Shown here: piece after piece, positions 3,825-59,591 of the stretch
Numbering within the stretch: the stretch's first letter is position 1
How the letters are laid out: each line of letters begins with the position of its first letter
Sequence record: MN882349.1
From: Escherichia phage Ec_Makalu_003
DNA length: 64,000 nt
Reading direction: 5' to 3' (one strand)
Made by a program: the position numbers and the translations under genes
Notes under the pieces: generated by a model
Database searches by the model: none
What the model saw: the letters and a program-made list of their open reading frames with translations, nothing else
What the model was told of the DNA's origin: nothing

Positions 3825-4118
3825 ATGGCTGGATTATCCTACGATAAAGCTAAAACTACAGGGCACGGAAACTACCCACCTACGGTAATTAATGCAACTC
3901 AATCTAAGGTATTTGTTGAGGGTATCCCTGTATTAGTCGAAGGAGACCCAATTACACCACATACAAAAACAACAAAACCTTATGATACACACGGGGGAAC
4001 TACGGTCGCCAGTACCCCGAAAGTATTTGTTACCGGAAAGAAAGCAATTCAAATGGCAGATCGTATTAGCTGTGGCGATACCGTCGCTATGGCATCACCG
4101 AAGGTATTCATAAAATGA
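3825..4118 (+). CDS. 5.4: PAAR-repeat baseplate spike tip protein gp5.4
   Basis: 97 aa, same size as T4 gp5.4; PAAR-like segments ([27 protein letters not shown]); directly precedes gene 6. Confidence 0.75.
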
Positions 4119-6019
4119 CAAAGCAAAAGATTACACAAATTCCTGATATTTTTAATGCTGCTACATTCGATGAAATTAAAAGCGCATTAACCGACTGGAT
4201 GAGAAACCAGGAAGAATTTAAAGATTTTGATTTTAATGGTGCTGGTATTAACGTATTGATGGACTTGCTCGCATATAACACTCTGTATATTCAGCAATTC
4301 GCCAACGCCGCGCTATATGAATCTTTTATCAGAACGGCAATTAAGCGTAGTTCAGTTGTTCAAGCCGCGCAAGATTTAGGATATTTGCCAGCGAGTAAAA
4401 CTAGTGCATCGACTACAATTATGTTGCATGTTTCCCATCCACGAAATCCGGCAAGTATTCGAATCCCACGAGGGACTAAATTTATTGCAAGTGTGGATCG
4501 CCAGACTTCTTACCCATTTGTTACTACAGAAGACGTTGTGAGCGTTTTAGGTTCAAATGGTTTATATACGCCTATGCTTAAAGTCGCACAAGGTCGTATT
4601 GTTCGTACAGAAATGTTATTTGATCCGAAGAAACAAATTCTGATCCGTGACCCTGATATTGACCGCGCTCAGGTTAAATTGTGGGTGGACGGTGCTGAAT
4701 GGAAAGACTGGACACGAGAAAGTATTGTTAATGCAACTGGCGCAAGCAATATTTTCTATATGCGTGAAACCGTAGACGGACATACAGAAATTTTCTTTGG
4801 TGAAGGTGAATCAACCTTATCTGCGGCTGGCGGGGCGCTGGAAGCAAATTATATTGGTGGACTTAAGCCGTCAACTGGCGCTAATATTGTTATCGAATAT
4901 ATCAGCACTAAGGGCGCGGAAGCAAACGGTTCAGTTAATTTCACATACGCGGATACCCTTGCATCTATCTCTATTGTTAAAATTATTGAGAATCCGACAA
5001 ATGATCGTGATTATGTCGGTGCAGATGGTGGTGGTGATCCTGAATCAATCGAACGTATCCGTGAACTTGCTCCGGTAATGCGTGAATCTCAGCGTCGTTG
5101 TGTAACTGCTTCCGACTACGAGGCTTTTGTTTCTAGCCGTTTTGGTAGTATTGTTCAGGCGGTACAATGTTTCACCGACCGAGAGAAACCGGGTTATGCT
5201 TTTGTTGCTGTTAAGCCTAAATCTGGATTGCGCTTGACAACTGTTCAAAAAGAAGATATGCGCGATTATCTGGCAAAATATAATCTTGCCCCTATCACAC
5301 CGAGCATCATTGACCCTAACTATCTGTATATTAAACAGAATATTAAAGTTTCCTATTCAATCAACGACTTGTCAGAATCAGAGCAGTGGTTGCGTGGTGC
5401 GGTCATTGATCAGATTGATGCATATTACACCGACGAAGTGGAAATTTTTAACCAGACCTTTAGTAAGTCTAAAATGCTTGCGCGCATCGACAAAGCTGAT
5501 GTATCTGTGATAGGTTCTAGTGCAGAAATCGAGATGGTGCGAGAGATCGACAACTTCTATAAAGCACCGATGGCTGGAATCAAGTTTTTAAACCAGTATA
5601 AGAGCGGAATCAAGTCTAGTTCATTCAACTTCGAAAAGGACGACAAGCAATATCCGATCCATTATGTAAGTACAGAAATGAACAAAGAATCCGGTTTAGC
5701 TAAATTGCTGGTTGGACCTTTCCCTGTTGGTTCTGCAATCGCTTTACCGCACTATTCCGGCACTGATTTTGATAAAGAGGTTATCGACGGTGCGGACCTA
5801 TACTTTGAGGTTGGAGAGGTTCAGCATTATGACGACCTTATTTCATGGGATCTGGGTAAACTGAATATCAATAGCGATCGCTTTACTGGTTCATATATTG
5901 AGTTGACAGCTAAACCGATTGCTGATAACATCTTTACTAAAGACGGTTCTTTGATCGTGTTTGAAAACGATCTCCGTCCTCAGTACACAACTATTAGTCT
6001 GGAGGCAATTGCTCAATGA
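4115..6019 (+). CDS. 6: baseplate wedge subunit gp6
   Basis: 634 aa (T4 gp6 660 aa); start overlaps gene 5.4 stop; gene order. Confidence 0.85.
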
Positions 6020-9000
6020 TTAAAGCGCCTAGTGTAACTAGCTTGACAATAGAAAAATTGTCTGCTAATCAGGCGTATATCACATGGGATGACGTAGGCG
6101 AAAACTTCTTTTATTTTGTAGAGTTAGCCGAAACCAGAACACGAGACGGGGAGATCATCCCCGTCGATGAGTTAAGCTGGGTAAACCTGGGATATACTGC
6201 CGATCAAAACTGGTTTGAGGATAAAAACCTTTTTCCAGAATATTATTACAAGTTTCGTGTAGCAGTAGCCGCAGAAGGATTCGAACAAAGTAAATGGATT
6301 GAAACCGAAGAGTTTCAGACATTTAAGACAAACGCATATAATTTTTCTATGATGCGAGAGTTCAACCTTGCAAACGAGTTTATAAAGGAAAAATTTACAT
6401 ACGATAATAGAGAGTATGTCAAGTTTAATACTGACCTGATTCAAGCATCATTGATGAAGGAAGATTTTGTCTTTAGTCCTGAATATGCAAACATGACCAA
6501 TATCTCAAACTACATTGTAGTTGATGAGAACTTTCATGAAATACAGGACCACATAGAAAAAGTTTGTACTGATATAAACCGCACGATGTTAGCGGAAATG
6601 AACGGTGTTTTGTACCTTTTCGAACGGTTCCAGCCGATCGTGAAAGTGTCAAATGATAAAGGTCAATCATGGAAAGCATACAAGGCTTTTAATGACCGTG
6701 TAGGCAATCCGGTTTCCCGTACATGCGTTTATCAGTCTAAAACCACTACTTACGTTTTAGGATATGACCGAATCTTTTACGGACGACAAGCGAGCGATAC
6801 TAGATGGAGCGCGGACGATGTTCGATTTAGTGATGATACGATCACTTTTGCAAAGGTTGGTGACGAAAACGACTTAGGGTTTGATGTTGAGGTCTTTGGT
6901 GTATTTTCCAGATTAACAGGTGATACCACAAAATACGCCGAAGCTATGGCGTGCAGTGATGACTATTTGTGGGTTGGTGCTAAGGATGTTATTCGCCGGA
7001 TTCGTCTTAAGAATACTCCAGTTGATACCGTTCAGGGTTCGCCTACATTTGGGGAAAAGATATTTGACCCTGATATTATCCGAGTAACAGGAAATGACAA
7101 AGCTGTTATTCAGAAAATGGATGTTGTTGACGGAAAATTACTGGTATTTGTTACGGGTGAAGTTAAACAGCGTTATCAAGATCCGACCAAACCAGAAAAC
7201 GTTGTACCGTCAGATGATGCTGGTGTATACTTAATAGGGAGTGATGGTCTGTCTTTTCAGAGAGTATTTGGCAACACTCCGCAGGAAAGGGAATATATTC
7301 AGCACGGGTTCAGTAATATGTCAACCAATGGTGATGAGGTGTTCATAAGCCATTATAATCATCACTTCGAAAGCATTTTACCTGATCCAGAAACTGCCGC
7401 AAAATATGAATTAGGCGAAGCTGTGAAATATTCTCAGGAGCCAACTTATCTAACTGATAAGAAAATACATCAAACGACTTTCAGAGCAAGTTATGATGAT
7501 TTGCGTATTTGGGAGTTAGGACCGCAAGCGTATTATAATGAGGCTGATTATACATGGATGCGTCGAAACGGTGTCCGTGTGTGGATCACAAATGATAATC
7601 GCCCGTTGGTTGTTTATCCAGAGGTTATCTATACCCAAGAAGTTGATACATCTGGCATTCTTGACCAAAATAGGGTCAACCGAGAAGTTTATGATAAAGG
7701 GACCGTGACCTGTTATCTTAACAATGTTAAATTTGAAGGGTTCAAACAATATGCATCCGGTGTAATGTTCCATAAAAACACGGGAGAGATCATTGGATTC
7801 TATCAATTTAATTATCGTGTTCGTGACCAAGTTGGTGTATATTGGAAACCTACAAATGTAGCATTTGTTGCTGAATTACAAAATCAGGTTCGAGAGGTTC
7901 CCTGGGTTCCTGTTCATTATGACAGAGAGCAAGACCCAGATTTACGGCCTTTACTGAATAAGATGACCCCGGATAGCTTTTTGCTTGAGAACGAAAATTT
8001 CAGAAAATTCTCTGAATATTATCTGCAATTCTTAAGTGATGGTTCAGGAACATATTATAATAAACTAAAAAATCTGATTAAAAACAAATACCCACGCGAG
8101 CAAGATGCATATGAGTATCTTTGGTCAGAGATGAACAAACGAAACATCTATGCAGATAAAAACAAGCGAGATGCGGTAGTAAGATTCTTCGAATCCCGCA
8201 AATCAGATTTTTATTCCACTAAGGGCGTGGAGGCTTCTTATAAGTTCTTGTTTAAGTTACTTTATAATGAAGATGTGGAAATTGAGGTTGAATCGCAAGC
8301 CGGACTAGAGTATGATATTGTTGTTAGTTCAACGAACATTGACGAGGATATCGTAGGTCGCACGATCTATACTCCAACCGGACGGGCTAACGTGACGTAT
8401 CTTGAAAGGGAATATGAAGGTGGTCGCCTACGCTGGCGAGTAACCATTCATAACCTGATCGGGCGGTTCGAAGAAGGTCAAGTGATCAAATCAGAGAAAA
8501 CAGCGTTTGAAGGGATGATCCTTGTTGGTGTACGTGGTAAAGAGTTGTTGAGTAGTTCAATCGACTATATCAACCGCTCACGAAGCCAATACACCATGAA
8601 GATTAAAAGTGCATTACCAGTTTCGCGCTATGCAAATGATGTAATGCGATTCGTTCATCCTGTCGGCTTTGGGTTTATCGGTGTTACCCTGCTTACGATG
8701 TTCATTAACAGCGGGTTGAGCATGAAGCACACCGAGACTATAATTCAATCTCTGAAAAATTATAAGTTTGACAGCGGATTGCCTAGCGTGTATCCTGATC
8801 GGGTGGCAGACCTTGACGTTGACGGAAACATTAAGAAAGACCCGCTTACCGGAAAAGCATTATATTTGACTTCACCTTTAATCGGTGAAGAATTTCCGGT
8901 TCCTCCTGAATATGATCAGGAGAACAGCGAATTGTTCCACGGACTTAAAGCAAGCGAACGAAGATTTGCAATGAGTCCACTGTTTGACCAGTCGGCGGTA

Positions 9001-49653: not shown

Positions 49654-51705
49654 TTACATTTTAAATTTATCCGGCATAGCGTCTACAGACACAAGATCAG
49701 CGATAAGCTGACGTAGAGTTGCCTTATCTGCTTTCTTACGTTCGGTTTTAGCTTCGGTAATGAAGCTGGAGAAAGACAGGTCAGAAGCAGGTTTAACAAC
49801 ACCTTCACGGATGAATGCATCACCGTCCGCGATCATCTCACCAGATTCTTGTAATGCTGCCAGTTCATTTTTGTTCATAATATGTGCCTCAATGTAATAA
49901 GTTTCTTGTGAATCCGTCGATGCCGTAGCACGAGTTACCGTATCAAAGGATAACACAACACCGCGAGGAAGTAAAATCTCGCATTCTTTGTAAGCAAATG
50001 CTTTGTTACCTACTGGCAATACAGGGATGTTTTCCGCGCCAGCAATGGAGAAAGCAACATTAGCGCCACCTTCACCGCGAGATCCAGCCATAGAATCAAC
50101 ACCAGCAACGGCACTAGCCACGTTTGCATTCCATCCACCAAAAATATTAGGTGCAAGGGAAGTGCTCACATAGTTTTTAAAGTAAAACGCTTTTTGCTTA
50201 CGTGCAGTTTCCCACATTTGAGAACGGAAGTCCATACCACGATACAAGATAGTACCTGGATCAAGTTTAACACCATAGTTAGCAAATGCGTTATCCAGTG
50301 CATCACACATCTTGACCAATTCTTCTGGGTCTGCGATGCCTTCAAACTCTTCCAGCTTACGGTCGGTTAGGAAGTTGTTCATATTGATGTATGCTGCATC
50401 CGCATATTCGCTCAACACAAAACCTTCCGCGCCAGGCAGATCAAGATCAATATCTGCCATCATTTCACCCATGTTGCTAGCAATTGCTTCAAACATACCG
50501 GAAGCAACATTACGCAGGGCATCGGTTTTAATCTGCGTGATGTGACTACGCAGCATTTCAGCTTTTACATCTGCTGGCATAGACTGGTCGACGCGATCCA
50601 TTGCCAGGGCGGTGATCTTGTTTTCGAATACTTCCTCGCTCATGATTTCTTTTAAGCGTTTGATTGATGCTGCGATAACTTCCGCAGACAACGGATCATA
50701 TTGATCCTGAACTTTTACCAGTTCGCTTACTGCATATTTTGCATCGGCTTCGCTTTCAAAAATAGTACGCATGAAACCATAGCGAGTGATAATATCACTT
50801 GTCCAGTCATTCAGAGAACGGGCGGTTGAACGTTCTAAGGCTTGACGGTCAATCAGAGTATTAAACTGTTTCTTAGGTTCTGCTTCGGTGATATCTTCTT
50901 CCGGTTTAAGATTAATTTTTTCTGGATGATTCACATAGTCGCTGTTATAGGTCGCTTGAGTTTTCAGCATTTCTTCTTTAGTCAAACGAGATTTAGCCGC
51001 TACGCGTTGTTCTGCTTCCGCGTTTCGTTCTTCTTCCGACACAAGACTAGCCGCATACGCCTCATCTTTAGTCAGAGATTCACCAGTAGCCTTAGATACC
51101 CAGCGATCACCTAAATCACTTTCTACTTTAGTGAACAGGGATTCATCGAGTTTAATCCCTTTAATCTTATCAATCGCCATCCCGCGACGTTTGACAACAA
51201 CTAAAGCGATCTTTTTGCTGGTCATTACTTCCTGCTGGAATACTTCAAACTTCGGTGTACGACGCACCAAACGCTCTATAACGCGCTTAACCAGTTCGGT
51301 CTTACCTTTCATGCGGGATACGTTAAAACGGAACATAACAGCGTCTAATTGCGCTTTACGGGCTGTTTCCATGACCACATCAAAAGCACTTGACATAACT
51401 GCAATCGGGTTATCTCCTAGACCATTTTTAAGCTGTACAATACGACCGCTTTTGTTCATTTCGCACAGTACAACATGTGCGGTCTTGTCACCCATACGAA
51501 TGATTTTAGGTGTTTTGTTGGTGAAGTTACAAAGACGGACAATCACATCTTTATCGCGTGTCTGTACTGCAAAAAGCTGTTTAGGATTCTGCTTAGGCTT
51601 TAAGCACTGTACCGGAGCAATACTGCCAAAGTTTTCTTCCTCTTCCGTCAACAGCCATTTCTCGAAAGATTCAATCATTAGATCGTCGATTTCTAAGTTA
51701 AACAT
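49654..51705 (-). CDS. alt: ADP-ribosyltransferase Alt
   Basis: 683 aa (T4 Alt 682 aa); C-terminal domain with ILYRGMD, NYVSTSLAPNIFGGW, ECEILLPRG. Confidence 0.85.
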   Translation of the reverse strand: MFNLEIDDLMIESFEKWLLTEEEENFGSIAPVQCLKPKQNPKQLFAVQTRDKDVIVRLCNFTNKTPKIIRMGDKTAHVVLCEMNKSGRIVQLKNGLGDNPIAVMSSAFDVVMETARKAQLDAVMFRFNVSRMKGKTELVKRVIERLVRRTPKFEVFQQEVMTSKKIALVVVKRRGMAIDKIKGIKLDESLFTKVESDLGDRWVSKATGESLTKDEAYAASLVSEEERNAEAEQRVAAKSRLTKEEMLKTQATYNSDYVNHPEKINLKPEEDITEAEPKKQFNTLIDRQALERSTARSLNDWTSDIITRYGFMRTIFESEADAKYAVSELVKVQDQYDPLSAEVIAASIKRLKEIMSEEVFENKITALAMDRVDQSMPADVKAEMLRSHITQIKTDALRNVASGMFEAIASNMGEMMADIDLDLPGAEGFVLSEYADAAYINMNNFLTDRKLEEFEGIADPEELVKMCDALDNAFANYGVKLDPGTILYRGMDFRSQMWETARKQKAFYFKNYVSTSLAPNIFGGWNANVASAVAGVDSMAGSRGEGGANVAFSIAGAENIPVLPVGNKAFAYKECEILLPRGVVLSFDTVTRATASTDSQETYYIEAHIMNKNELAALQESGEMIADGDAFIREGVVKPASDLSFSSFITEAKTERKKADKATLRQLIADLVSVDAMPDKFKM

Positions 51706-52304: not shown

Positions 52305-52823
52305 TTAGTTATTTTTTAATTGCTCATCTTGCAATAATGCAATCACATGCTGGCGATGTTCTTCCGATTGAGGAACACCGAAAAAGTTTGTTTTGTAGAA
52401 ATACTCTAATCGGTCTTCTCGTGTGCTCTCTTCCATCATGATCGCGGGTAGTCCAAGATTTCGGAAACGTCGCTTTTCTGCTGGCGTAAAATCACTGTAA
52501 TACAACATAGAATCATCATTACCAGCAATGCTAAACTCATCCTTCATAAAGGAGAATATTGCGTTTAAACGCTGTTTACCGTCCACGATTTCGATCTCAT
52601 AGCGAGAGCCATCATCAATCTTAGCCATTGCGATAGCACCAACCGGAAAATCATTAATCAGGTTTTCGATAAACATACGTTTGTTTTCGGTGTCCCATAC
52701 CAAAGGACGCTGATAATCTGGGTTCATGTTGATATAGCCATCTTCTAACCACGCCTCATAAACAGAGATGACAAAGTTTTTAGTATTGGTATAGTAACGG
52801 CGTTTAGGCGTTAAACGGTTCAT
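52305..52823 (-). CDS. DUF262-like (ParB/Srx-fold) protein
   Basis: 172 aa from ATG 52823 (SD AGGAG); DYQRPLVW and VDGKQRL resemble the DUF262 N-terminal motifs (DGQQR type); last gene of a five-gene operon. Confidence 0.55.
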   Translation of the reverse strand: MNRLTPKRRYYTNTKNFVISVYEAWLEDGYINMNPDYQRPLVWDTENKRMFIENLINDFPVGAIAMAKIDDGSRYEIEIVDGKQRLNAIFSFMKDEFSIAGNDDSMLYYSDFTPAEKRRFRNLGLPAIMMEESTREDRLEYFYKTNFFGVPQSEEHRQHVIALLQDEQLKNN

Positions 52824-52824
52824 G

Positions 52825-53157
52825 TTATAGTCTCCTGAATGGATCATCACGTAAATCAATATCTTTTAAGAACTCATCCCATGAATGGCGGATAATGTTC
52901 TTAATTCTCCAGATAAGCGCAGGGATTGAACGCTCTCCCATCTGGAAGTAAGGATCATATGATCCATATGCCCAATATGCTACTACAATTCCACAATCGG
53001 CGCAATAATATTCTATTTCACTTGCTGGCGACCAAAGTCCATCAATATGATCACGGATCTTGCTTTCGATGTTATGGCTATGGCAATCAGGGCAACGGAT
53101 GCAATGACCTTGTTTATCGTAATTTGACGTTAGCGAATACTTAAACAATCTCATCAT
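52825..53157 (-). CDS. zinc-ribbon protein
   Basis: 110 aa; CIRCPDC ... CADCG (CxxC...CxxC); start overlaps upstream stop. Confidence 0.55.
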   Translation of the reverse strand: MMRLFKYSLTSNYDKQGHCIRCPDCHSHNIESKIRDHIDGLWSPASEIEYYCADCGIVVAYWAYGSYDPYFQMGERSIPALIWRIKNIIRHSWDEFLKDIDLRDDPFRRL

Positions 53158-53870
53158 AGATCCTTATTGGCTTCAAATACTGCCTTTGCGAATCCTCGCG
53201 GGGTAAGTGACCTGATAGTCTTTGTTCTGGTTCCTTTCCCGCCTAGCTTAGAATGCTGTTTACTGTACCCTTTATTAATCTGCAACGGTTTCTTTTCTGG
53301 CATTATAAAGCCTTGTCCGGTCCATAAGCAAGTCTTTTTCGGGTACATATCACGGGCGGCAATATACTCAGGAAACGTAGGATGCTTATCATCTTCCGGC
53401 AAATAACCGCCATATTCCCACGGATGGAACATGTAATCAGGCTTACGCCACATGCTAGAGATAACGCTTACAGGATTCTCTATCATGTAGGGAACTCCTA
53501 GCCATTCACCCAAATAAGCGGTTATTTTAGCTGCCCTTACATCATGAACTTGAATTAATGGTCCTTGTTCTCGTTTCTTTCGTTCAAAGTGCGCAGCGCC
53601 ACTAACAGCTAAATTGGTGCATGGTGGGAATGCAAAGATAATATCCGGTTTCCCCCATTCAAGGTCCATTGCTCTTTCCAGCCAATTTAAATCAATCCAT
53701 GTGTTTACATATGTAATGTTTGGATGTTCAAATCTGGTATTATATTTTTTGTATGTACCGTGGTCGCCATCGTCAGCATTAAAGCAGATCACCTTATGAC
53801 CTGCTTTAGCCCATTCTAACCCCATTATCCCCGATCCGTCAAAGTTGCAGAATATTAATTTTTGTTTCAT
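53154..53870 (-). CDS. C5-cytosine DNA methyltransferase-like protein (compact)
   Basis: 238 aa; motif I-like LIFCNFDGSGIMGLEWAKAGHKVICFNADD, motif IV-like IIFAFPPCTNLAVSG (Pro-Cys), motif VI-like MIENP; region after motif VI too short for a typical target-recognition domain. Confidence 0.55.
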   Translation of the reverse strand: MKQKLIFCNFDGSGIMGLEWAKAGHKVICFNADDGDHGTYKKYNTRFEHPNITYVNTWIDLNWLERAMDLEWGKPDIIFAFPPCTNLAVSGAAHFERKKREQGPLIQVHDVRAAKITAYLGEWLGVPYMIENPVSVISSMWRKPDYMFHPWEYGGYLPEDDKHPTFPEYIAARDMYPKKTCLWTGQGFIMPEKKPLQINKGYSKQHSKLGGKGTRTKTIRSLTPRGFAKAVFEANKDL

Positions 53871-54360: not shown

Positions 54361-54400
54361 TGTTTGATTCTCCTAAGTGGTATCTCGTCTTGATGGTTGT

Positions 54401-54429
54401 ATTGTAGGGGAGTTATCCTCCCCTGTCAA
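54401..54429 (-). promoter_or_regulatory. repeated early promoter cassette C3 (TTGACA-17-TACAAT)
   Basis: Spacer is the palindrome GGGGAGGATAACTCCCC; SD AGGAG downstream. Confidence 0.6.
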
Positions 54430-54443
54430 CACTTTTTATAAAA

Positions 54444-54611
54444 TTATTTGTTAATTTCTGGTGCGTTGCTAGGATAGTAACCTTCTTTAACTCCGAGGTA
54501 TTTTGCAACCATCCCTACAATCTTCTGTGCTACTACAATGTCAAATTTCAGATAATCTTCGCCGTGGGTTTCAATGATATATGCTTCACATGCTGCTTTA
54601 GTCTCGAACAT
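54444..54611 (-). CDS. hypothetical small protein (55 aa), paralog of 57726-57893
   Basis: MFETKAACEAYIIETHGEDYLKFDIVVAQKIVGMVAKYLGVKEGYYPSNAPEINK; near-identical to the ORF at 57726-57893. Confidence 0.55.
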   Translation of the reverse strand: MFETKAACEAYIIETHGEDYLKFDIVVAQKIVGMVAKYLGVKEGYYPSNAPEINK

Positions 54612-54644
54612 TTTGATTCTCCTATTTCGTTTCGGTATGTGTGT

Positions 54645-54673
54645 ATTATAGGGGATCTCCCGATCCCCGTCAA
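54645..54673 (-). promoter_or_regulatory. repeated early promoter cassette C4 (TTGACG-17-TATAAT)
   Basis: Palindromic spacer GGGATCGGGAGATCCCC; SD AGGAG downstream. Confidence 0.6.
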
Positions 54674-54687
54674 CAACTTTTTTAAAA

Positions 54688-54969
54688 TTATTCGTGATTA
54701 GTTTCGATATTGTGCATTTTGCACCAGTTCAGCCAATCGCCAAGATCTTGATAGTTGATGCTTTTATCTGCTGCCATCGTTTTTGTCTTGATACCCATAT
54801 GTGCGTTATGAGTAAGCATTTTTACAGTGAACTCAATTTTATCGCCTTTAGCTTTAACATCAACCAGTTTGGTCCACTGGCTACCAGCACCGCGAATGTT
54901 CATACCAACGATGTTTCCGATGTATGCTTCTTTGTTGTTCAGGATTTCGGTTGCTTTGATGAATTTCAT
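54688..54969 (-). CDS. hypothetical protein
   Basis: 93 aa; preceded by cassette C5. Confidence 0.55.
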   Translation of the reverse strand: MKFIKATEILNNKEAYIGNIVGMNIRGAGSQWTKLVDVKAKGDKIEFTVKMLTHNAHMGIKTKTMAADKSINYQDLGDWLNWCKMHNIETNHE

Positions 54970-55002
54970 TTTTGATTCTCCAGTTCGTTTCGGTATGGGT
55001 GT

Positions 55003-55031
55003 ATTATGCTATGTTCTTACTTTGGTGTCAA
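55003..55031 (-). promoter_or_regulatory. repeated early promoter cassette C5 (TTGACA-17-CATAAT)
   Basis: Same -35/-10/leader/SD architecture as C1; no palindrome in the spacer. Confidence 0.55.
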
Positions 55032-55039
55032 CAACTTTT

Positions 55040-55309
55040 TTAGATATTTTCAGAAATAAATTTTAAAACTTGACGTAAATGTTTCTCATCTTTGATAGTC
55101 GCCGGAAGTTCTTCTTTTACTTCCTGTGCAAGATAGATATTTCCGTTCCAAGTGAAAGACCCGTCTTCGTTTACGCGATAGCTGAACATCCATTCGCAAT
55201 CATTTTCGATTTCATATACACACAGAAGGGTGTAATCTTCAAAGCTATTGATTTCAAGGTCGAAGCCGTGGCGTTTTGCAAAGTTGGTAGTGGTTTTAGT
55301 CAGTGCCAT
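55040..55309 (-). CDS. hypothetical protein
   Basis: 89 aa; preceded by cassette C6. Confidence 0.55.
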   Translation of the reverse strand: MALTKTTTNFAKRHGFDLEINSFEDYTLLCVYEIENDCEWMFSYRVNEDGSFTWNGNIYLAQEVKEELPATIKDEKHLRQVLKFISENI

Positions 55310-55348
55310 TGTTTGATTCTCCTAAGTGGTATCTCGTTTCGATGGGTG

Positions 55349-55377
55349 TATTATGCTATAGGCGTGATCAGGTGTCA
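55349..55377 (-). promoter_or_regulatory. repeated early promoter cassette C6 (TTGACA-17-CATAAT)
   Basis: Same architecture; immediately downstream of the terminator at 55403-55428. Confidence 0.55.
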
Positions 55378-55402
55378 ATGCCTTTTTTAAAATTTTATGC
55401 AA

Positions 55403-55428
55403 TAAAAAAGCCGACACTAAGGTCGGCT
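55403..55428 (-). terminator. rho-independent terminator (minus strand)
   Basis: Hairpin AGCCGACCTTAGTGTCGGCT followed by TTTTTT on the minus strand. Confidence 0.65.
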
Positions 55429-55435
55429 AATAAAA

Positions 55436-55744
55436 TCATTTAGACAAATAATCATTCAGTGCAATCCGGTCGGCATGTTCCGGCGTTACATCAATCGCAA
55501 TCACTTTAACGCGTGCTTTCTTGCGACCTGGGTTTTCTCGTAACCAGTGCTCATGACCGTGAACATTTTTATACTGCGATGCTTCTTCGAAGGTACGGAT
55601 CGGACCAGGGTAATCAGCGTAAAGGATCTCTAGGTCATCGGTGATGTAAAAATATACGTTGTAATTACTGTTCTCTAGCTTAAGCAGAGACTTTCGGAAC
55701 ATTGGGAGATTTTCGCGGGTAAATTCAAAAGTAATATCTTTCAT
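55436..55744 (-). CDS. HxHW-motif small protein family member
   Basis: 102 aa from ATG 55744 (SD GAGGAT); YFYITDDLEILYADY ... HGHEHWL ... VKVIAIDV. Confidence 0.55.
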   Translation of the reverse strand: MKDITFEFTRENLPMFRKSLLKLENSNYNVYFYITDDLEILYADYPGPIRTFEEASQYKNVHGHEHWLRENPGRKKARVKVIAIDVTPEHADRIALNDYLSK

Positions 55745-55766
55745 AGTATTATCCTCAATAGTTGGA

Positions 55767-55788
55767 TGAAAAGGGGGCTTAACGCCCC
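55767..55788 (-). terminator. terminator-like hairpin (minus strand)
   Basis: Hairpin GGGGCGTTAAGCCCCC followed by TTTTC on the minus strand. Confidence 0.5.
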
Positions 55789-55793
55789 ATATA

Positions 55794-56081
55794 TTAAAAC
55801 AGTCCTTCCTGTACACCGTAGTAGAGTTCGTCGCTGATAATTTCATTAATGCGACGGTGTGCATATTCCTGATTTGCGAAGTTGTCAGCAAGTTCTACTT
55901 TAGTTTCACCGTCATGAGTCCATTTAGTGATAACTTTACCATCTGCAAATTTGAAGTTGAACTCTTTAGCTACTGCATCGCGTACCAGACGTGCGAACTT
56001 GTTGTTACGGATTGCATTATCGGTTTCGTGTGCAGCGTGAGCAAATTTGTTAACTTTCAGAGTGATAGTGATGTATGCCAT
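55794..56081 (-). CDS. hypothetical protein
   Basis: 95 aa; preceded by cassette C7. Confidence 0.55.
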   Translation of the reverse strand: MAYITITLKVNKFAHAAHETDNAIRNNKFARLVRDAVAKEFNFKFADGKVITKWTHDGETKVELADNFANQEYAHRRINEIISDELYYGVQEGLF

Positions 56082-56127
56082 AATTTGATTCTCCTAGTTA
56101 GAAAGTGTATCTCGTTTCGATGGGTGT

Positions 56128-56156
56128 ATTATGCTATACACCCGATCTTATGTCAA
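56128..56156 (-). promoter_or_regulatory. repeated early promoter cassette C7 (TTGACA-17-CATAAT)
   Basis: Inverted repeat GGGTGTAT/ATACACCC spans the -10, as in C1. Confidence 0.6.
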
Positions 56157-56163
56157 CACTTTT

Positions 56164-56442
56164 TTATAAAATAATTTTTTGATATTTTTCTATGATGTTT
56201 GTGTAATCCACATCAACCGCTATCACCGTTGCTTCGAATCCACCGTTTAGCCAATGGCTATGGTCATGATCGTGAAAGAAACCAAGACCAGTACGAAGAC
56301 CTTCTTTATATTCGGCGCGTACATTTAGATCATCATCGATAAACAGATAAAACCATGAATTTTTACTAGGATTGATGATACAACCTTTCAGATTAGGGAG
56401 AATATCACGACTAAGAATAAACTTATCACCTACTTTGAACAT
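56164..56442 (-). CDS. HxHW-motif small protein family member
   Basis: 92 aa from ATG 56442 (SD GAGGA); WFYLFIDDDLNVRAEY ... HDHDHSHWL ... VIAVDV. Confidence 0.55.
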   Translation of the reverse strand: MFKVGDKFILSRDILPNLKGCIINPSKNSWFYLFIDDDLNVRAEYKEGLRTGLGFFHDHDHSHWLNGGFEATVIAVDVDYTNIIEKYQKIIL

Positions 56443-56446
56443 AATA

Positions 56447-56767
56447 TTAGTCCTCACTTATAAGGTCAAACCAATTGTTTTTCGCATAATGCTTAATGCG
56501 TGCTTGATCTGCTTCCGCTGGTGATAGATTCCATGCAACCACTACAACTTCTGACGCGTCGTCATCCGTTTCTGATACCCAATGATTGTGATTCATACAG
56601 TTATTTGCGATCGAGTGAGCAAATGATTTCATCACTGGAGACGTATAATCATAGTAACGGATTTTCAGATTTTCATCAACATACAAGTAGATCGTATAAG
56701 GTTTATATTCAGTAACCAGTAACAGACAGTTACGCAATTCTGGGAAAATCTTTTTAGTTAATTTCAT
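56447..56767 (-). CDS. HxHW-motif small protein family member
   Basis: 106 aa from ATG 56767; YTIYLYVDENLKIRYYDY ... HNHW ... VVVVAW. Confidence 0.5.
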   Translation of the reverse strand: MKLTKKIFPELRNCLLLVTEYKPYTIYLYVDENLKIRYYDYTSPVMKSFAHSIANNCMNHNHWVSETDDDASEVVVVAWNLSPAEADQARIKHYAKNNWFDLISED

Positions 56768-56768
56768 T

Positions 56769-56987
56769 TTATAATCCTCGGTCGCGGCTATAGTACACGG
56801 TACGCCATACAATTTCATGTTTCGTGTCGCTCCAGCACACGATCTCATTTACTCTTAAATCTTTGTTATCAACAAAAGATGAACATTGTGACGCTTCTTT
56901 CATCATTTTATCTGCTGTTTTCTCATCAAATACAGCACAGATTTCTTTATACACTCGATAATCTTTGAATTGACTCTGGATACCCAT
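56769..56987 (-). CDS. hypothetical protein, tandem paralog of 56947-57204
   Basis: About 72 aa; SQFKDYRVYKEICAVFDEKTADKMMKEASQCSSF parallels the upstream ORF; start uncertain (56987 or 56999). Confidence 0.45.
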   Translation of the reverse strand: MGIQSQFKDYRVYKEICAVFDEKTADKMMKEASQCSSFVDNKDLRVNEIVCWSDTKHEIVWRTVYYSRDRGL

Positions 56988-57204
56988 AATTAACACCATT
57001 CCAACCAATTGTTTTTGAGAAAACGTTTATCCACTGTTGAGTGTAGCATGTTTCTTTCCATGATACAATACGAGTAGAATAATGGTTTTTGTTTCCAGAA
57101 AAGGACGGGCATTTTGATGCATCTTCCATCATCTTTTCGGCGAACTCCGCGTCATATACCCGCAGGATCTGTTGATATGCTTTATAATCTTTAAATTTGC
57201 TCAT
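56947..57204 (-). CDS. hypothetical protein, tandem paralog of 56769-56987
   Basis: 85 aa; MSKFKDYKAYQQILRVYDAEFAEKMMEDASKCPSF. Confidence 0.5.
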   Translation of the reverse strand: MSKFKDYKAYQQILRVYDAEFAEKMMEDASKCPSFSGNKNHYSTRIVSWKETCYTQQWINVFSKTIGWNGVNYGYPESIQRLSSV

Positions 57205-57469
57205 AATTGTTAACTACCTTATCAGCTTCTTTTATTGTTTTTACATCAACTGCGATAATCCGTAAAGGTTCGTCGAAGGTCCACCAGTGGTCATGAATAT
57301 CAGCTTGTGATTTATCACCAAAGGAATCACGAATATCATTTTTACATTTATAGCTAATATGGCCTTCATAGTCAACATAAAGGTAATTATCGAAAATCGG
57401 AGTTTTTAAGATCATACCGAAAAATCTTTCTTTGTGTGTCTTATCAAGTGTTGCAGTAATTCGCATCAT
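57191..57469 (-). CDS. HxHW-motif small protein family member
   Basis: 92 aa; SD GAGGA; NYLYVDYEGHISY ... HDHWW ... RIIAVDV. Confidence 0.55.
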   Translation of the reverse strand: MMRITATLDKTHKERFFGMILKTPIFDNYLYVDYEGHISYKCKNDIRDSFGDKSQADIHDHWWTFDEPLRIIAVDVKTIKEADKVVNNYEQI

Positions 57470-57481
57470 AATATATTCCTC

Positions 57482-57661
57482 TTAGAAAGGGATGGTCATT
57501 TCTTGAGCTTGTACATTCTCGTTAGGATTAAACTTCATCCAACCGATATTGTCTACCAGCATATGTACATTTTTATCATATCCTACGTGAGTAGTCAACA
57601 CTAAATGTGCTTTACCTTCAACGATGATTTCCATGTACTTCTGAACTTCGATAGCTTTCAT
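57482..57661 (-). CDS. hypothetical small protein (59 aa)
   Basis: Minus-strand ORF directly downstream of cassette C8; below track cut-off. Confidence 0.45.
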   Translation of the reverse strand: MKAIEVQKYMEIIVEGKAHLVLTTHVGYDKNVHMLVDNIGWMKFNPNENVQAQEMTIPF

Positions 57662-57693
57662 TTTGATTCTCCGTTTGTTGTCTTGATGGGAGT

Positions 57694-57722
57694 ATCTTAC
57701 TACTCCCTTTAATCATTGTCAA
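57694..57722 (-). promoter_or_regulatory. repeated early promoter cassette C8 (TTGACA-17-TAAGAT, weak -10)
   Basis: Inverted repeat GGGAGTA/TACTCCC overlaps the -10 region. Confidence 0.45.
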
Positions 57723-57725
57723 CTA

Positions 57726-57893
57726 TTATTTGTTAATTTCTGGTGCGTTGCTCGGATAGTAACCTTCTTTAACACCCAGATATTTTGCAACCATTCCGGT
57801 GATCTTCTGTGCTACTACGATATCGAATTTCAGGTAGTCTTCACCGTGGTTTGCTACAATGTATGCTTCGCATTCTGCTTTAGTCTGGAACAT
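57726..57893 (-). CDS. hypothetical small protein (55 aa), paralog of 54444-54611
   Basis: MFQTKAECEAYIVANHGEDYLKFDIVVAQKITGMVAKYLGVKEGYYPSNAPEINK; the track start at 57929 extends into the promoter cassette. Confidence 0.55.
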   Translation of the reverse strand: MFQTKAECEAYIVANHGEDYLKFDIVVAQKITGMVAKYLGVKEGYYPSNAPEINK

Positions 57894-57927
57894 TTTTGAT
57901 TCTCCTATATCTCGTTGGTATGTGTGC

Positions 57928-57956
57928 ATTATAGGGGATCACCGATCCCCTGTCAA
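57928..57956 (-). promoter_or_regulatory. repeated early promoter cassette C9 (TTGACA-17-TATAAT)
   Basis: Palindromic spacer GGGGATCGGTGATCCCC. Confidence 0.6.
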
Positions 57957-57961
57957 CAACT

Positions 57962-58255
57962 TTATAATGCTTTATACGCGTATTTCATAAATTTGTCTGC
58001 CACTTCATTGGCATGTTCAGATTCTACGCCTGATTCGAGAACAATAGCTAGGTCGGTTTCGTCATTCCCGCCGTACCAATGATTTGATGTTCGATTTTTT
58101 TCAATTGGAAATTGGTCACTTTTATCTGTGCGACAAAATACATCTAAATGCTCGTCGATGTAAAAGATCCAATCTTCATAAAGAATAACGGTATTAGCAA
58201 GATTTTTATTGCCTTCAACGAAAGGTTCCGCGACAAATAGCTTAGTTTGTTCCAT
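57962..58255 (-). CDS. HxHW-motif small protein family member (divergent)
   Basis: 97 aa from ATG 58255 (SD GAGGAA); ILYEDWIFYIDEHLDVF ... SNHWYGG ... LAIVLESG. Confidence 0.5.
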   Translation of the reverse strand: MEQTKLFVAEPFVEGNKNLANTVILYEDWIFYIDEHLDVFCRTDKSDQFPIEKNRTSNHWYGGNDETDLAIVLESGVESEHANEVADKFMKYAYKAL

Positions 58256-58271
58256 AGTAATTTCCTCAAAA

Positions 58272-58463
58272 TTATACAGTTTCGTAAACTTCCCAATGTT
58301 CAGCGCCAACACGCTTAACGAAAAGGTTTTCTTTGATGTTATTCATAAACGTCTGGATGGATTTAATGCGGTTTGAAGGTTTCCATTCTTCGTTGGCATT
58401 GCGTCGATACATCATAACATTACCAGTTCGCTTATATTCAGCAACCATTTTAAGACCACACAT
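58272..58463 (-). CDS. hypothetical protein
   Basis: 63 aa; SD GAGGA. Confidence 0.5.
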   Translation of the reverse strand: MCGLKMVAEYKRTGNVMMYRRNANEEWKPSNRIKSIQTFMNNIKENLFVKRVGAEHWEVYETV

Positions 58464-58520
58464 AATATTATCCTCAATTTGTGGGAGAGTATTACCCCTC
58501 CCAATGATTGTTATGTTATA

Positions 58521-58841
58521 TCACACAAAATGGCGTGTCAATGCTTCTTTTGCGGTTCCGCTAAGACTTTCAATCTCGCCTGGCATAACATCAACCGCCA
58601 GAACTTCTACAACATCTTCGGACCCTAACCAGTGAGTATGGCCTTTGTAGAACTTGATAACCAGACCACCTTCCTCGTCCCATTTAACGCTATCGCTAGC
58701 CCACCACACATCACCGTCGATAAAGTTGATGTAAAGCACACTACGCCACATTGAATTAATTACTTTCAATACTGCGCCTTTCATCTCTTCCACGGTATGG
58801 TCTTCCATTTTGAAGACCTCACCTACCTGAACTTTTGCCAT
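58521..58841 (-). CDS. HxHW-motif small protein family member
   Basis: 106 aa; VLYINFIDGDVWWASD ... HTHWL ... VLAVDV. Confidence 0.55.
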   Translation of the reverse strand: MAKVQVGEVFKMEDHTVEEMKGAVLKVINSMWRSVLYINFIDGDVWWASDSVKWDEEGGLVIKFYKGHTHWLGSEDVVEVLAVDVMPGEIESLSGTAKEALTRHFV

Positions 58842-58858
58842 TTAGTCACCTCTCTTTA

Positions 58859-59038
58859 TTACATAACAATCACGCCAGCCGTTGAAAGTTGATGTTTCAA
58901 CTGAGCATTTTCTGCTACTGTCAAATCAATGATTTCTTGTGACGCTGCAATCATATAACCATTGGTGATATTGTTTTGCATCAGTTCAATGGTTTCTTCG
59001 TTGTAGCGGATTTTAGCGATGATTTCGTTGAAGTTCAT
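58859..59038 (-). CDS. hypothetical small protein (59 aa)
   Basis: MNFNEIIAKIRYNEETIELMQNN...; preceded by cassette C10; the track start at 59104 extends into the promoter. Confidence 0.5.
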   Translation of the reverse strand: MNFNEIIAKIRYNEETIELMQNNITNGYMIAASQEIIDLTVAENAQLKHQLSTAGVIVM

Positions 59039-59072
59039 AATTGATTCTCCTAGTTCGTTTCGGTATGTGTGC

Positions 59073-59101
59073 AGTATAGGGGATCGCCGATCCCCTGTCA
59101 A
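59073..59101 (-). promoter_or_regulatory. repeated early promoter cassette C10 (TTGACA-17-TATACT)
   Basis: Spacer GGGGATCGGCGATCCCC identical to C2; begins right after the HNH gene stop. Confidence 0.6.
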
Positions 59102-59114
59102 CAACTTTTTTGAA

Positions 59115-59591
59115 TTATTTTTCTTGATGCTCGCGCTCGTACTTTTCGAAATAAAATTCTACTGGCTGATCGTGGATTGAAAGCAAGCCAAAGCGTTTAG
59201 CCGCACGTAATCCCATGTTACGTTGAATGTACTTCTGGAAGTTCTCGCGTATACACTTACGCCAGTATTCTAAGCCCATACAGCTTTTGTAAAGATTGCA
59301 TTGCACACAAGCCGGATTCATGTTGTCAAGTATATCGTGCTCCGGTTTATGCATTCCTACAACCTTATACTTCCACGATCCATCATCATTACGGGCAATT
59401 CGTCCATTTTCATCATAGACTACTTTTGAGCGTCGCAATACTGGTTTGATGTGGTCTGCGTGCCAGCGATCCCCTAGTTCCTCGCCACAATAGGCACAAC
59501 GCCCACCGTATTTCATTTTCAGGATCTGGCGTTGCTCTTTCTTTGACAATTTTTTAGGTTTAGGGGCTTTCGCCCCTTCATTATCACACAT
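59115..59591 (-). CDS. HNH endonuclease
   Basis: 158 aa; CAYCGEEL ... WHADHIKPV ... NMNPACVQCN; start overlaps the 3' end of DNA ligase gene 30. Confidence 0.75.
   Translation of the reverse strand: MCDNEGAKAPKPKKLSKKEQRQILKMKYGGRCAYCGEELGDRWHADHIKPVLRRSKVVYDENGRIARNDDGSWKYKVVGMHKPEHDILDNMNPACVQCNLYKSCMGLEYWRKCIRENFQKYIQRNMGLRAAKRFGLLSIHDQPVEFYFEKYEREHQEK

Follow-up and report, generated by a model that had tools for sequence, protein, structure and literature searches.

Six small genes in a hyperplastic region of an RB49-like phage read as one divergent protein family with a His-x-His-Trp signature

Introduction

Do the six short minus-strand open reading frames (ORFs) found between positions 55436 and 58841 of Escherichia phage Ec_Makalu_003 DNA (sequence record MN882349.1) encode one protein family, and what could such a family do for the phage? 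The window analyzed here, a stretch of 64,000 nucleotides of that record, is from the RB49-like Krischvirus genome of an E. coli phage; its region 55000-59200 shows 94-98% identity to RB49-like phages (Krischvirus, Straboviridae) across 58 matching records, the closest of which is Ec_Makalu_001 with 98.3% identity. In the RB49 annotation, the six ORFs are hypothetical proteins; alt and a DNA methyltransferase gene flank them on one side, and an HNH endonuclease gene and gene 30, for DNA ligase, on the other. Orphan gene families with several copies are well known from the hyperplastic regions of phages. The six-gene block is within such a hyperplastic region (alt to DNA ligase) of the kind known from RB49 and phi1, and the RB49/phi1 regions contain many orphan genes and many PeSL cassettes, each combining a sigma-70 early promoter with a stem-loop terminator (PMC2839356). 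The sequences themselves are already deposited as hypothetical proteins; what appears to be new is their recognition as one family with an HxHW signature.

Six divergent genes of one family

The family members in the window were named p1 to p6 by rising coordinate. All six were found on the minus strand, at the coordinates given in a first-pass annotation of the window.

p1, 55436..55744, minus strand: 102 aa; RB49p197; phrog_9345; HEHW at 55544-55555
p2, 56164..56442, minus strand: 92 aa; RB49p199; phrog_17255; HSHW at 56251-56262
p3, 56447..56767, minus strand: 106 aa; RB49p200; phrog_9345; HNHW at 56579-56590
p4, 57191..57469, minus strand: 92 aa; RB49p203; phrog_15972; HDHW at 57284-57295
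p5, 57962..58255, minus strand: 97 aa; RB49p206; phrog_15965; the most divergent copy, with a degenerate SNHW at 58076-58087
p6, 58521..58841, minus strand: 106 aa; RB49p208; phrog_16486; HTHW at 58629-58640

Each of the six has an ATG start and, near it, a GAGG or AGAGG Shine-Dalgarno sequence no more than 25 nt upstream, and all six are real genes. The p2 start lies 5 nt beyond the p3 stop. The proteins are acidic (pI 4.5-6.4) and soluble in character, and inspection of the six sequences revealed no transmembrane segment, signal peptide, or conserved Cys. The tetrapeptides listed in the first-pass annotation (HEHW, HSHW, HNHW, HDHW, (S)NHW, and HTHW) were confirmed by position, and the YxYID-like and V(I/L)AVDV-like strands that it described on either side of them are present. 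The p5 copy of the window is without the first His (SNHW), and THNHW is kept in some p5 orthologues. Among the six-frame ORF segments of at least 40 aa from the whole window (51,149 residues), HxHW occurs five times, always in family genes, against 0.46 occurrences expected from composition.

The sequence links, with E-values computed against 583 ORF segments of the window, join five of the six copies directly. We found phmmer matches between p1 and p3 (2e-12), p1 and p2 (5e-5), and p2 and p6 (2e-4), and a hidden Markov model (HMM) built from p1, p2, p3, and p6 picks up p4 at 6e-6. The five-member HMM of window sequences missed p5. A profile of p5 orthologues aligned with the family profile at an hhalign probability of 96.6% (E 5e-10), and the alignment is colinear over the YxYID strand, the HxHW motif, and the VLAxDV strand. 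In addition, the metagenomic protein P0099, retrieved by a profile built without p5, matches the p5 orthologues at 2e-11 and so bridges p5 to the family. The unity proposed in the first-pass annotation holds for all six ORFs, five by phmmer and HMM and p5 by hhalign and P0099, and the window yielded no seventh member. The identity among the paralogues is 17-31%, and the HxHW motif is the sole invariant feature at this level; the family alignment contains no conserved run of 7-10 columns. Judged from these comparisons, the six ORFs belong to a true family of paralogues that diverged long ago.

PeSL repeats abound in the region, and the family might accordingly be suspected of being an artefact, with a motif that arose by chance or from PeSL-derived DNA read in frame. 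Sensitive blastn searches among the six coding sequences gave nothing significant, the His codons of the motif vary from copy to copy, and the PeSL repeats are essentially intergenic, their overlap with coding sequence being limited to the final 7-8 nt of p2 and p5. The likeness is therefore at the protein level rather than one of common cassette DNA. The HMM and hhalign statistics are significant, the predicted folds are alike, the ratio of nonsynonymous to synonymous substitution rates (dN/dS) is below 1, and a Shine-Dalgarno site precedes every gene. We rejected the nucleotide-cassette explanation on the HMM, hhalign, dN/dS, and blastn and codon evidence, and an artefact of either kind is vanishingly improbable.

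Predicted fold and comparison with known families

AlphaFold2 models were obtained for p1 (predicted local distance difference test, pLDDT, 84.3; predicted template modelling score, pTM, 0.79) and p2 (pLDDT 85.1, pTM 0.78). Both models have the same order of elements: a strand, a helix, three strands, a helix, a short helix, a strand, and a C-terminal helix. The HxHW motif begins the short helix preceding the last strand, and the lowest model confidence in both is in the loop around or just before the motif. In Foldseek searches of BFVD, models of Krischvirus paralogues match the p1 model at template modelling (TM) scores of 0.57-0.78, and beyond the paralogues the search gave only marginal matches to uncharacterized phage proteins. 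The agreement of the independent p1 and p2 models and the TM scores of the paralogues bear out the common fold put forward in the first-pass annotation: all copies are predicted to share one α/β fold, the likeness being read from element order and TM score, not from residue-level superposition. Among solved structures, no significant match to the family fold was found.

An extra gene lies by the p6 slot in phage JSE (L006), at 7112-7378 on the minus strand. This 88-aa gene, EpJSE_00215, is absent from the window. In its product, the hydrophobic strands and a C-terminal helix follow in the family order, in colinear arrangement, but GNGHLI replaces HxHW, and hhalign against the family gives 4%, which is not significant. 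The 88-aa JSE protein C4MZ33, presumably EpJSE_00215 (by length match only), aligns with the p1 model at TM scores of 0.59/0.67.

The family is as unrecognized as the first-pass annotation had it. Sequence searches of Pfam, NCBIfam, and PDB gave only sub-threshold noise (PROCT, TTL, and an 'NHSHW' in IsdC at E 0.095). In PHROGs, the six proteins are full-length members of 9345, 17255, 15972, 15965, and 16486 (E 1e-46 to 1e-72), which are five separate families of unknown function; weak cross-matches between these hint at the unity described above.

Several known families were considered and rejected. A metallo-beta-lactamase (MBL) domain is more than twice as large as these proteins, which have neither the D-H after HxH nor the downstream ligands; MBL was not among the best 60 matches of p2, and there was no Pfam Lactamase_B match. 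The NEAT domain (IsdC-type, haem-binding) gave no significant sequence match. The KOW/Spt5-like label that its source attaches to P0070, a p2 orthologue, is unsupported, with no KOW motif or SH3-like barrel found by profile or structure. In the case of T4-type internal proteins (IPI-III and Alt-like capsid-targeted proteins), the N-termini of the six differ from one another and seem unlike the T4 capsid-targeting sequence, and the promoters are of the sigma-70 early type. Kept as candidates for comparison are small anti-defence inhibitors and sponges of phages, such as AcrIIA7 (8kbi) and ModTad2 (9eib), together with the Tas1 immunity protein (6ox6_B).

Distribution and evolution

Searched exhaustively with HMMER, 1.84 billion cluster representatives yielded 16 clusters at E ≤1e-3, of which 15 are credible; the match to P0096, a repeat-rich protein, is spurious. 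All credible clusters with a traced source are T4-like, and their genes are often in tandem. Among 50,697 cultured phage records, the family was found in Krischvirus only. A further search with a profile enlarged to 22 sequences added only further Krischvirus-type alleles (P0100-P0103), and a scan of IMG/VR with P0099 gave no match. As far as these collections reach, RB49-like Krischvirus phages and a few uncultured relatives, T4-like wherever traced, are the only carriers of the family.

Three contigs illustrate how the genes are arranged in such relatives. The 2.1 kb metagenomic contig SRR8048117_15661 (L002) carries four family genes with five domains: P0094 (823-1434, plus strand, 203 aa) is a natural head-to-tail fusion of two HxHW domains, one family gene (214-573) lies two genes upstream of it, and two more follow directly after it, overlapping or abutting. 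A more distant T4-like contig (L004) has two members in the same interval between ligase and Alt, and a 170-kb Krischvirus-like contig (L011) has a replaced allele at the p4 slot.

Within Krischvirus, the six slots are present and syntenic in all seven genomes compared. Pairwise Nei-Gojobori estimates for the orthologues of each copy gave dN/dS values of 0.08-0.22 for the family genes versus 0.02-0.04 for the ligase, HNH, and methyltransferase genes, and the family dN is ~5-25 times that of the ligase and methyltransferase. The first-pass annotation had suggested diversifying selection, which these values do not support: every copy is under purifying selection, and hypervariability is local, being found in the loop just before HxHW. 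In the p2-p6 orthologue groups, the ~15 residues before the motif contain indels and show 2-4 times the variability of the rest of the protein, and the HxHW motif itself is essentially invariant within these groups. The p1 orthologues showed no such contrast between loop and rest, the samples being small throughout. The pattern is one of purifying selection on fast-evolving genes, not of gene-wide positive selection. Allele replacement is also seen at the p2 and p3 slots of JSE, whose alleles are 36% and 55% identical, respectively, to the window copies. The p1 orthologue of JSE (3871-4178, minus strand) is frameshifted into EpJSE_00202 and EpJSE_00203, either as a pseudogene or through sequencing error.

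The stability of the slots is relevant to a phage-internal role, in which the proteins, instead of being directed at the host, would assist early transcription, replication, or DNA handling, for example as small regulators or chaperone-like factors. Synteny in every Krischvirus compared, which is stabler than typical swappable ORFan cassettes, together with purifying selection and the nearby ligase, HNH endonuclease, DNA methyltransferase, and Alt, would be consistent with such a role. Nevertheless, the family is absent from other cultured T4-like genera and is represented by only 16 clusters in 1.84e9 representatives, and with so narrow a distribution it cannot serve a core T4-type process. 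Moreover, a dN 5-25 times that of core genes, allele replacement in the slots, and the JSE p1 frameshift are hallmarks of accessory, environment-facing genes. We consider a phage-internal role distinctly unlikely.

PeSL elements and transcription units

Three PeSL elements head the transcription units that contain the family genes, and a terminator-like element closes the block:

59041..59114, minus strand: PeSL with a sigma-70-like early promoter (TTGACA-17-TATACT, 59101->59073), heading g209-p6-g207-p5
57896..57969, minus strand: PeSL with a perfect-consensus promoter (57956->57928), heading g205-g204-p4-g202-g201-p3-p2
57722->57694, minus strand: weaker promoter-like site
56107..56170, minus strand: PeSL with a promoter (56156->56128), heading g198-p1
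55409..55428, minus strand: terminator-like GC stem-loop with a T run after it, directly 3' of the p1 stop

Near-consensus sigma-70 promoters (11-12 of 12 positions) are located on the coding strand at 59101, 57956, 56156, 55378, 55031, 54673, and 54429, and the PeSL direct-repeat families D1 and D3 occur in the region. At least eight PeSL copies, each a promoter with a GC-rich stem-loop, lie within 5 kb (54380-59114); they are intergenic and oriented as the genes are, and their stems differ in sequence while the promoter and the parts proximal to the ribosome-binding site are conserved.

PeSL promoters and terminators are functional in RB49 in reporter assays (PMC2839356), and PeSL-flanked ORFan genes have been described in the hyperplastic regions of RB49 and phi1 (Arbiol et al. 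2010, PMC2839356; Comeau et al. 2014, PMC4122927). The genes analyzed here share with these the phage group, the genome region, the arrangement of small orphans behind repeated sigma-70 promoter and stem-loop cassettes, and allele replacement between related phages. They conform to the PeSL plus ORFan cassette of Arbiol et al. 2010, but the units comprise 2-7 genes instead of one per cassette; furthermore, the six ORFans here are one family, and all six slots are stably kept across the genus. For these genes, the text of PMC2839356 uses none of the words paralog, famil(y), and duplicat(ion), and ORF197, 199, 200, and 203 are not mentioned in it.

Neighbouring genes

The block and its surroundings contain other genes, two of which have the following Pfam assignments:

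49654-51705: Alt
59115-59591: HNH endonuclease

Two near-identical 55-aa genes (54444-54611 and 57726-57893, both minus strand; phrog_8009, of unknown function) lie 3.3 kb apart, both within a direct repeat (172 nt, 86% identity), and a PeSL lies just upstream of each. This pair looks like a recent cassette duplication, unlike the ancient HxHW paralogues. Between p3 and p4, two small paralogous genes overlap each other (56769-56987 and 56947-57204, both minus strand) and both belong to phrog_8471; at the g201 slot of this pair, the alleles in JSE, SFHK24, and ELT3 are 40-64% identical, with dS saturated. On the Alt side, a 172-aa protein (52305-52823, minus strand) consists of a GmrSD_N (DUF262) domain alone (Pfam E 4e-20). 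In a type IV restriction enzyme, GmrSD_N forms the N-terminal domain; the nuclease half is missing from this phage copy. A zinc-ribbon ORF (52825-53157) and the DNA methyltransferase gene (53154-53870) adjoin it.

Possible function

The reading that we favor, though tentatively, is that the six proteins are early accessory effectors acting on a host component, with a shared HxHW site for a ligand, metal, or partner and with paralogue-specific loops. Each copy would act on a host defence or takeover target. The invariant His-x-His-Trp would be the common ligand- or metal-binding, or partner-contact, site, and the adjacent loop, variable in length and sequence, would together with the diverged surfaces determine the specificity of each paralogue; six copies would be kept side by side because each has its own specificity. 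An invariant motif beside a hypervariable loop in proteins of such low identity suggests this combination of a common site with paralogue-specific recognition. The early promoters, the accessory region, the fast evolution and allele swapping, the acidic soluble character, and the absence from other T4-like genera point to early effectors aimed at the host. RB49-like DNA is not known to be modified at cytosine, and these phages would therefore rely on protein countermeasures.

The proteins probably act as dimers or hetero-oligomers, as suggested by the P0094 fusion, the 5-nt spacing between p3 and p2, and the overlapping or abutting genes of L002. Close or overlapping family genes could allow translational coupling, and the two His pairs of a dimer could together make up a full metal site.

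The same features bear on a small-molecule role, in which the proteins would be miniature metal-dependent hydrolases, or sponges for nucleotide-type signals or cofactors, with the paralogues tuned to different ligands; the His pair would be catalytic or phosphate-binding and the Trp would stack on a base. Invariance of HxHW alone, at 17-31% identity, is more characteristic of a chemical site than of an interface. The motif opens a short helix that follows a loop, a position in which HxH motifs for metal binding or catalysis are often found, and the P0094 fusion and tandem genes suggest oligomers, which sponge proteins are. Against this, there is no third or fourth conserved metal ligand, Pfam, PDB, and NCBIfam give no enzyme signal, and p5 of this lineage is under purifying selection even without the first His. 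We consider a small-molecule role of this kind rather unlikely.

The host-directed reading has its own difficulties. Our searches yielded no homologue of known function and no literature on the six genes, either as one family or by the HxHW signature, and the genes neighbouring the family members are all likewise of unknown function. We infer early expression of the six genes from the promoter consensus, the PeSL signals, and the reporter assays published for PeSL elements. Two His per monomer is an incomplete metal site, and the p5 lineage of the window has lost the first of them. In addition, inhibitors that act purely by protein-protein contact would not usually keep one motif invariant in all paralogues. 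All of these points weigh against host-directed effectors and are the reason for the caution with which we word that proposal. A share of the probability goes to functions outside all of these readings.

Conclusions

RB49-like phages are common on E. coli and Shigella and are in therapeutic use. With six of their 'hypothetical' early genes recognized as one family, a concrete set becomes available for functional and ligand-binding study. If the proteins are not host-directed, the family would be a lineage-specific ORFan family of modest interest; if they are, we would have a compact case of a phage keeping a multi-specificity effector panel. It is an unlikely but attractive prospect that the family represents a new fold class of counter-defence or takeover proteins, with a dimeric HxHW metal or nucleotide site, a programmable loop, a panel of six specificities, and PeSL-mediated allele exchange. 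Should the fold prove to be such a new ligand-binding counter-defence module, the interest of the family would rise substantially.

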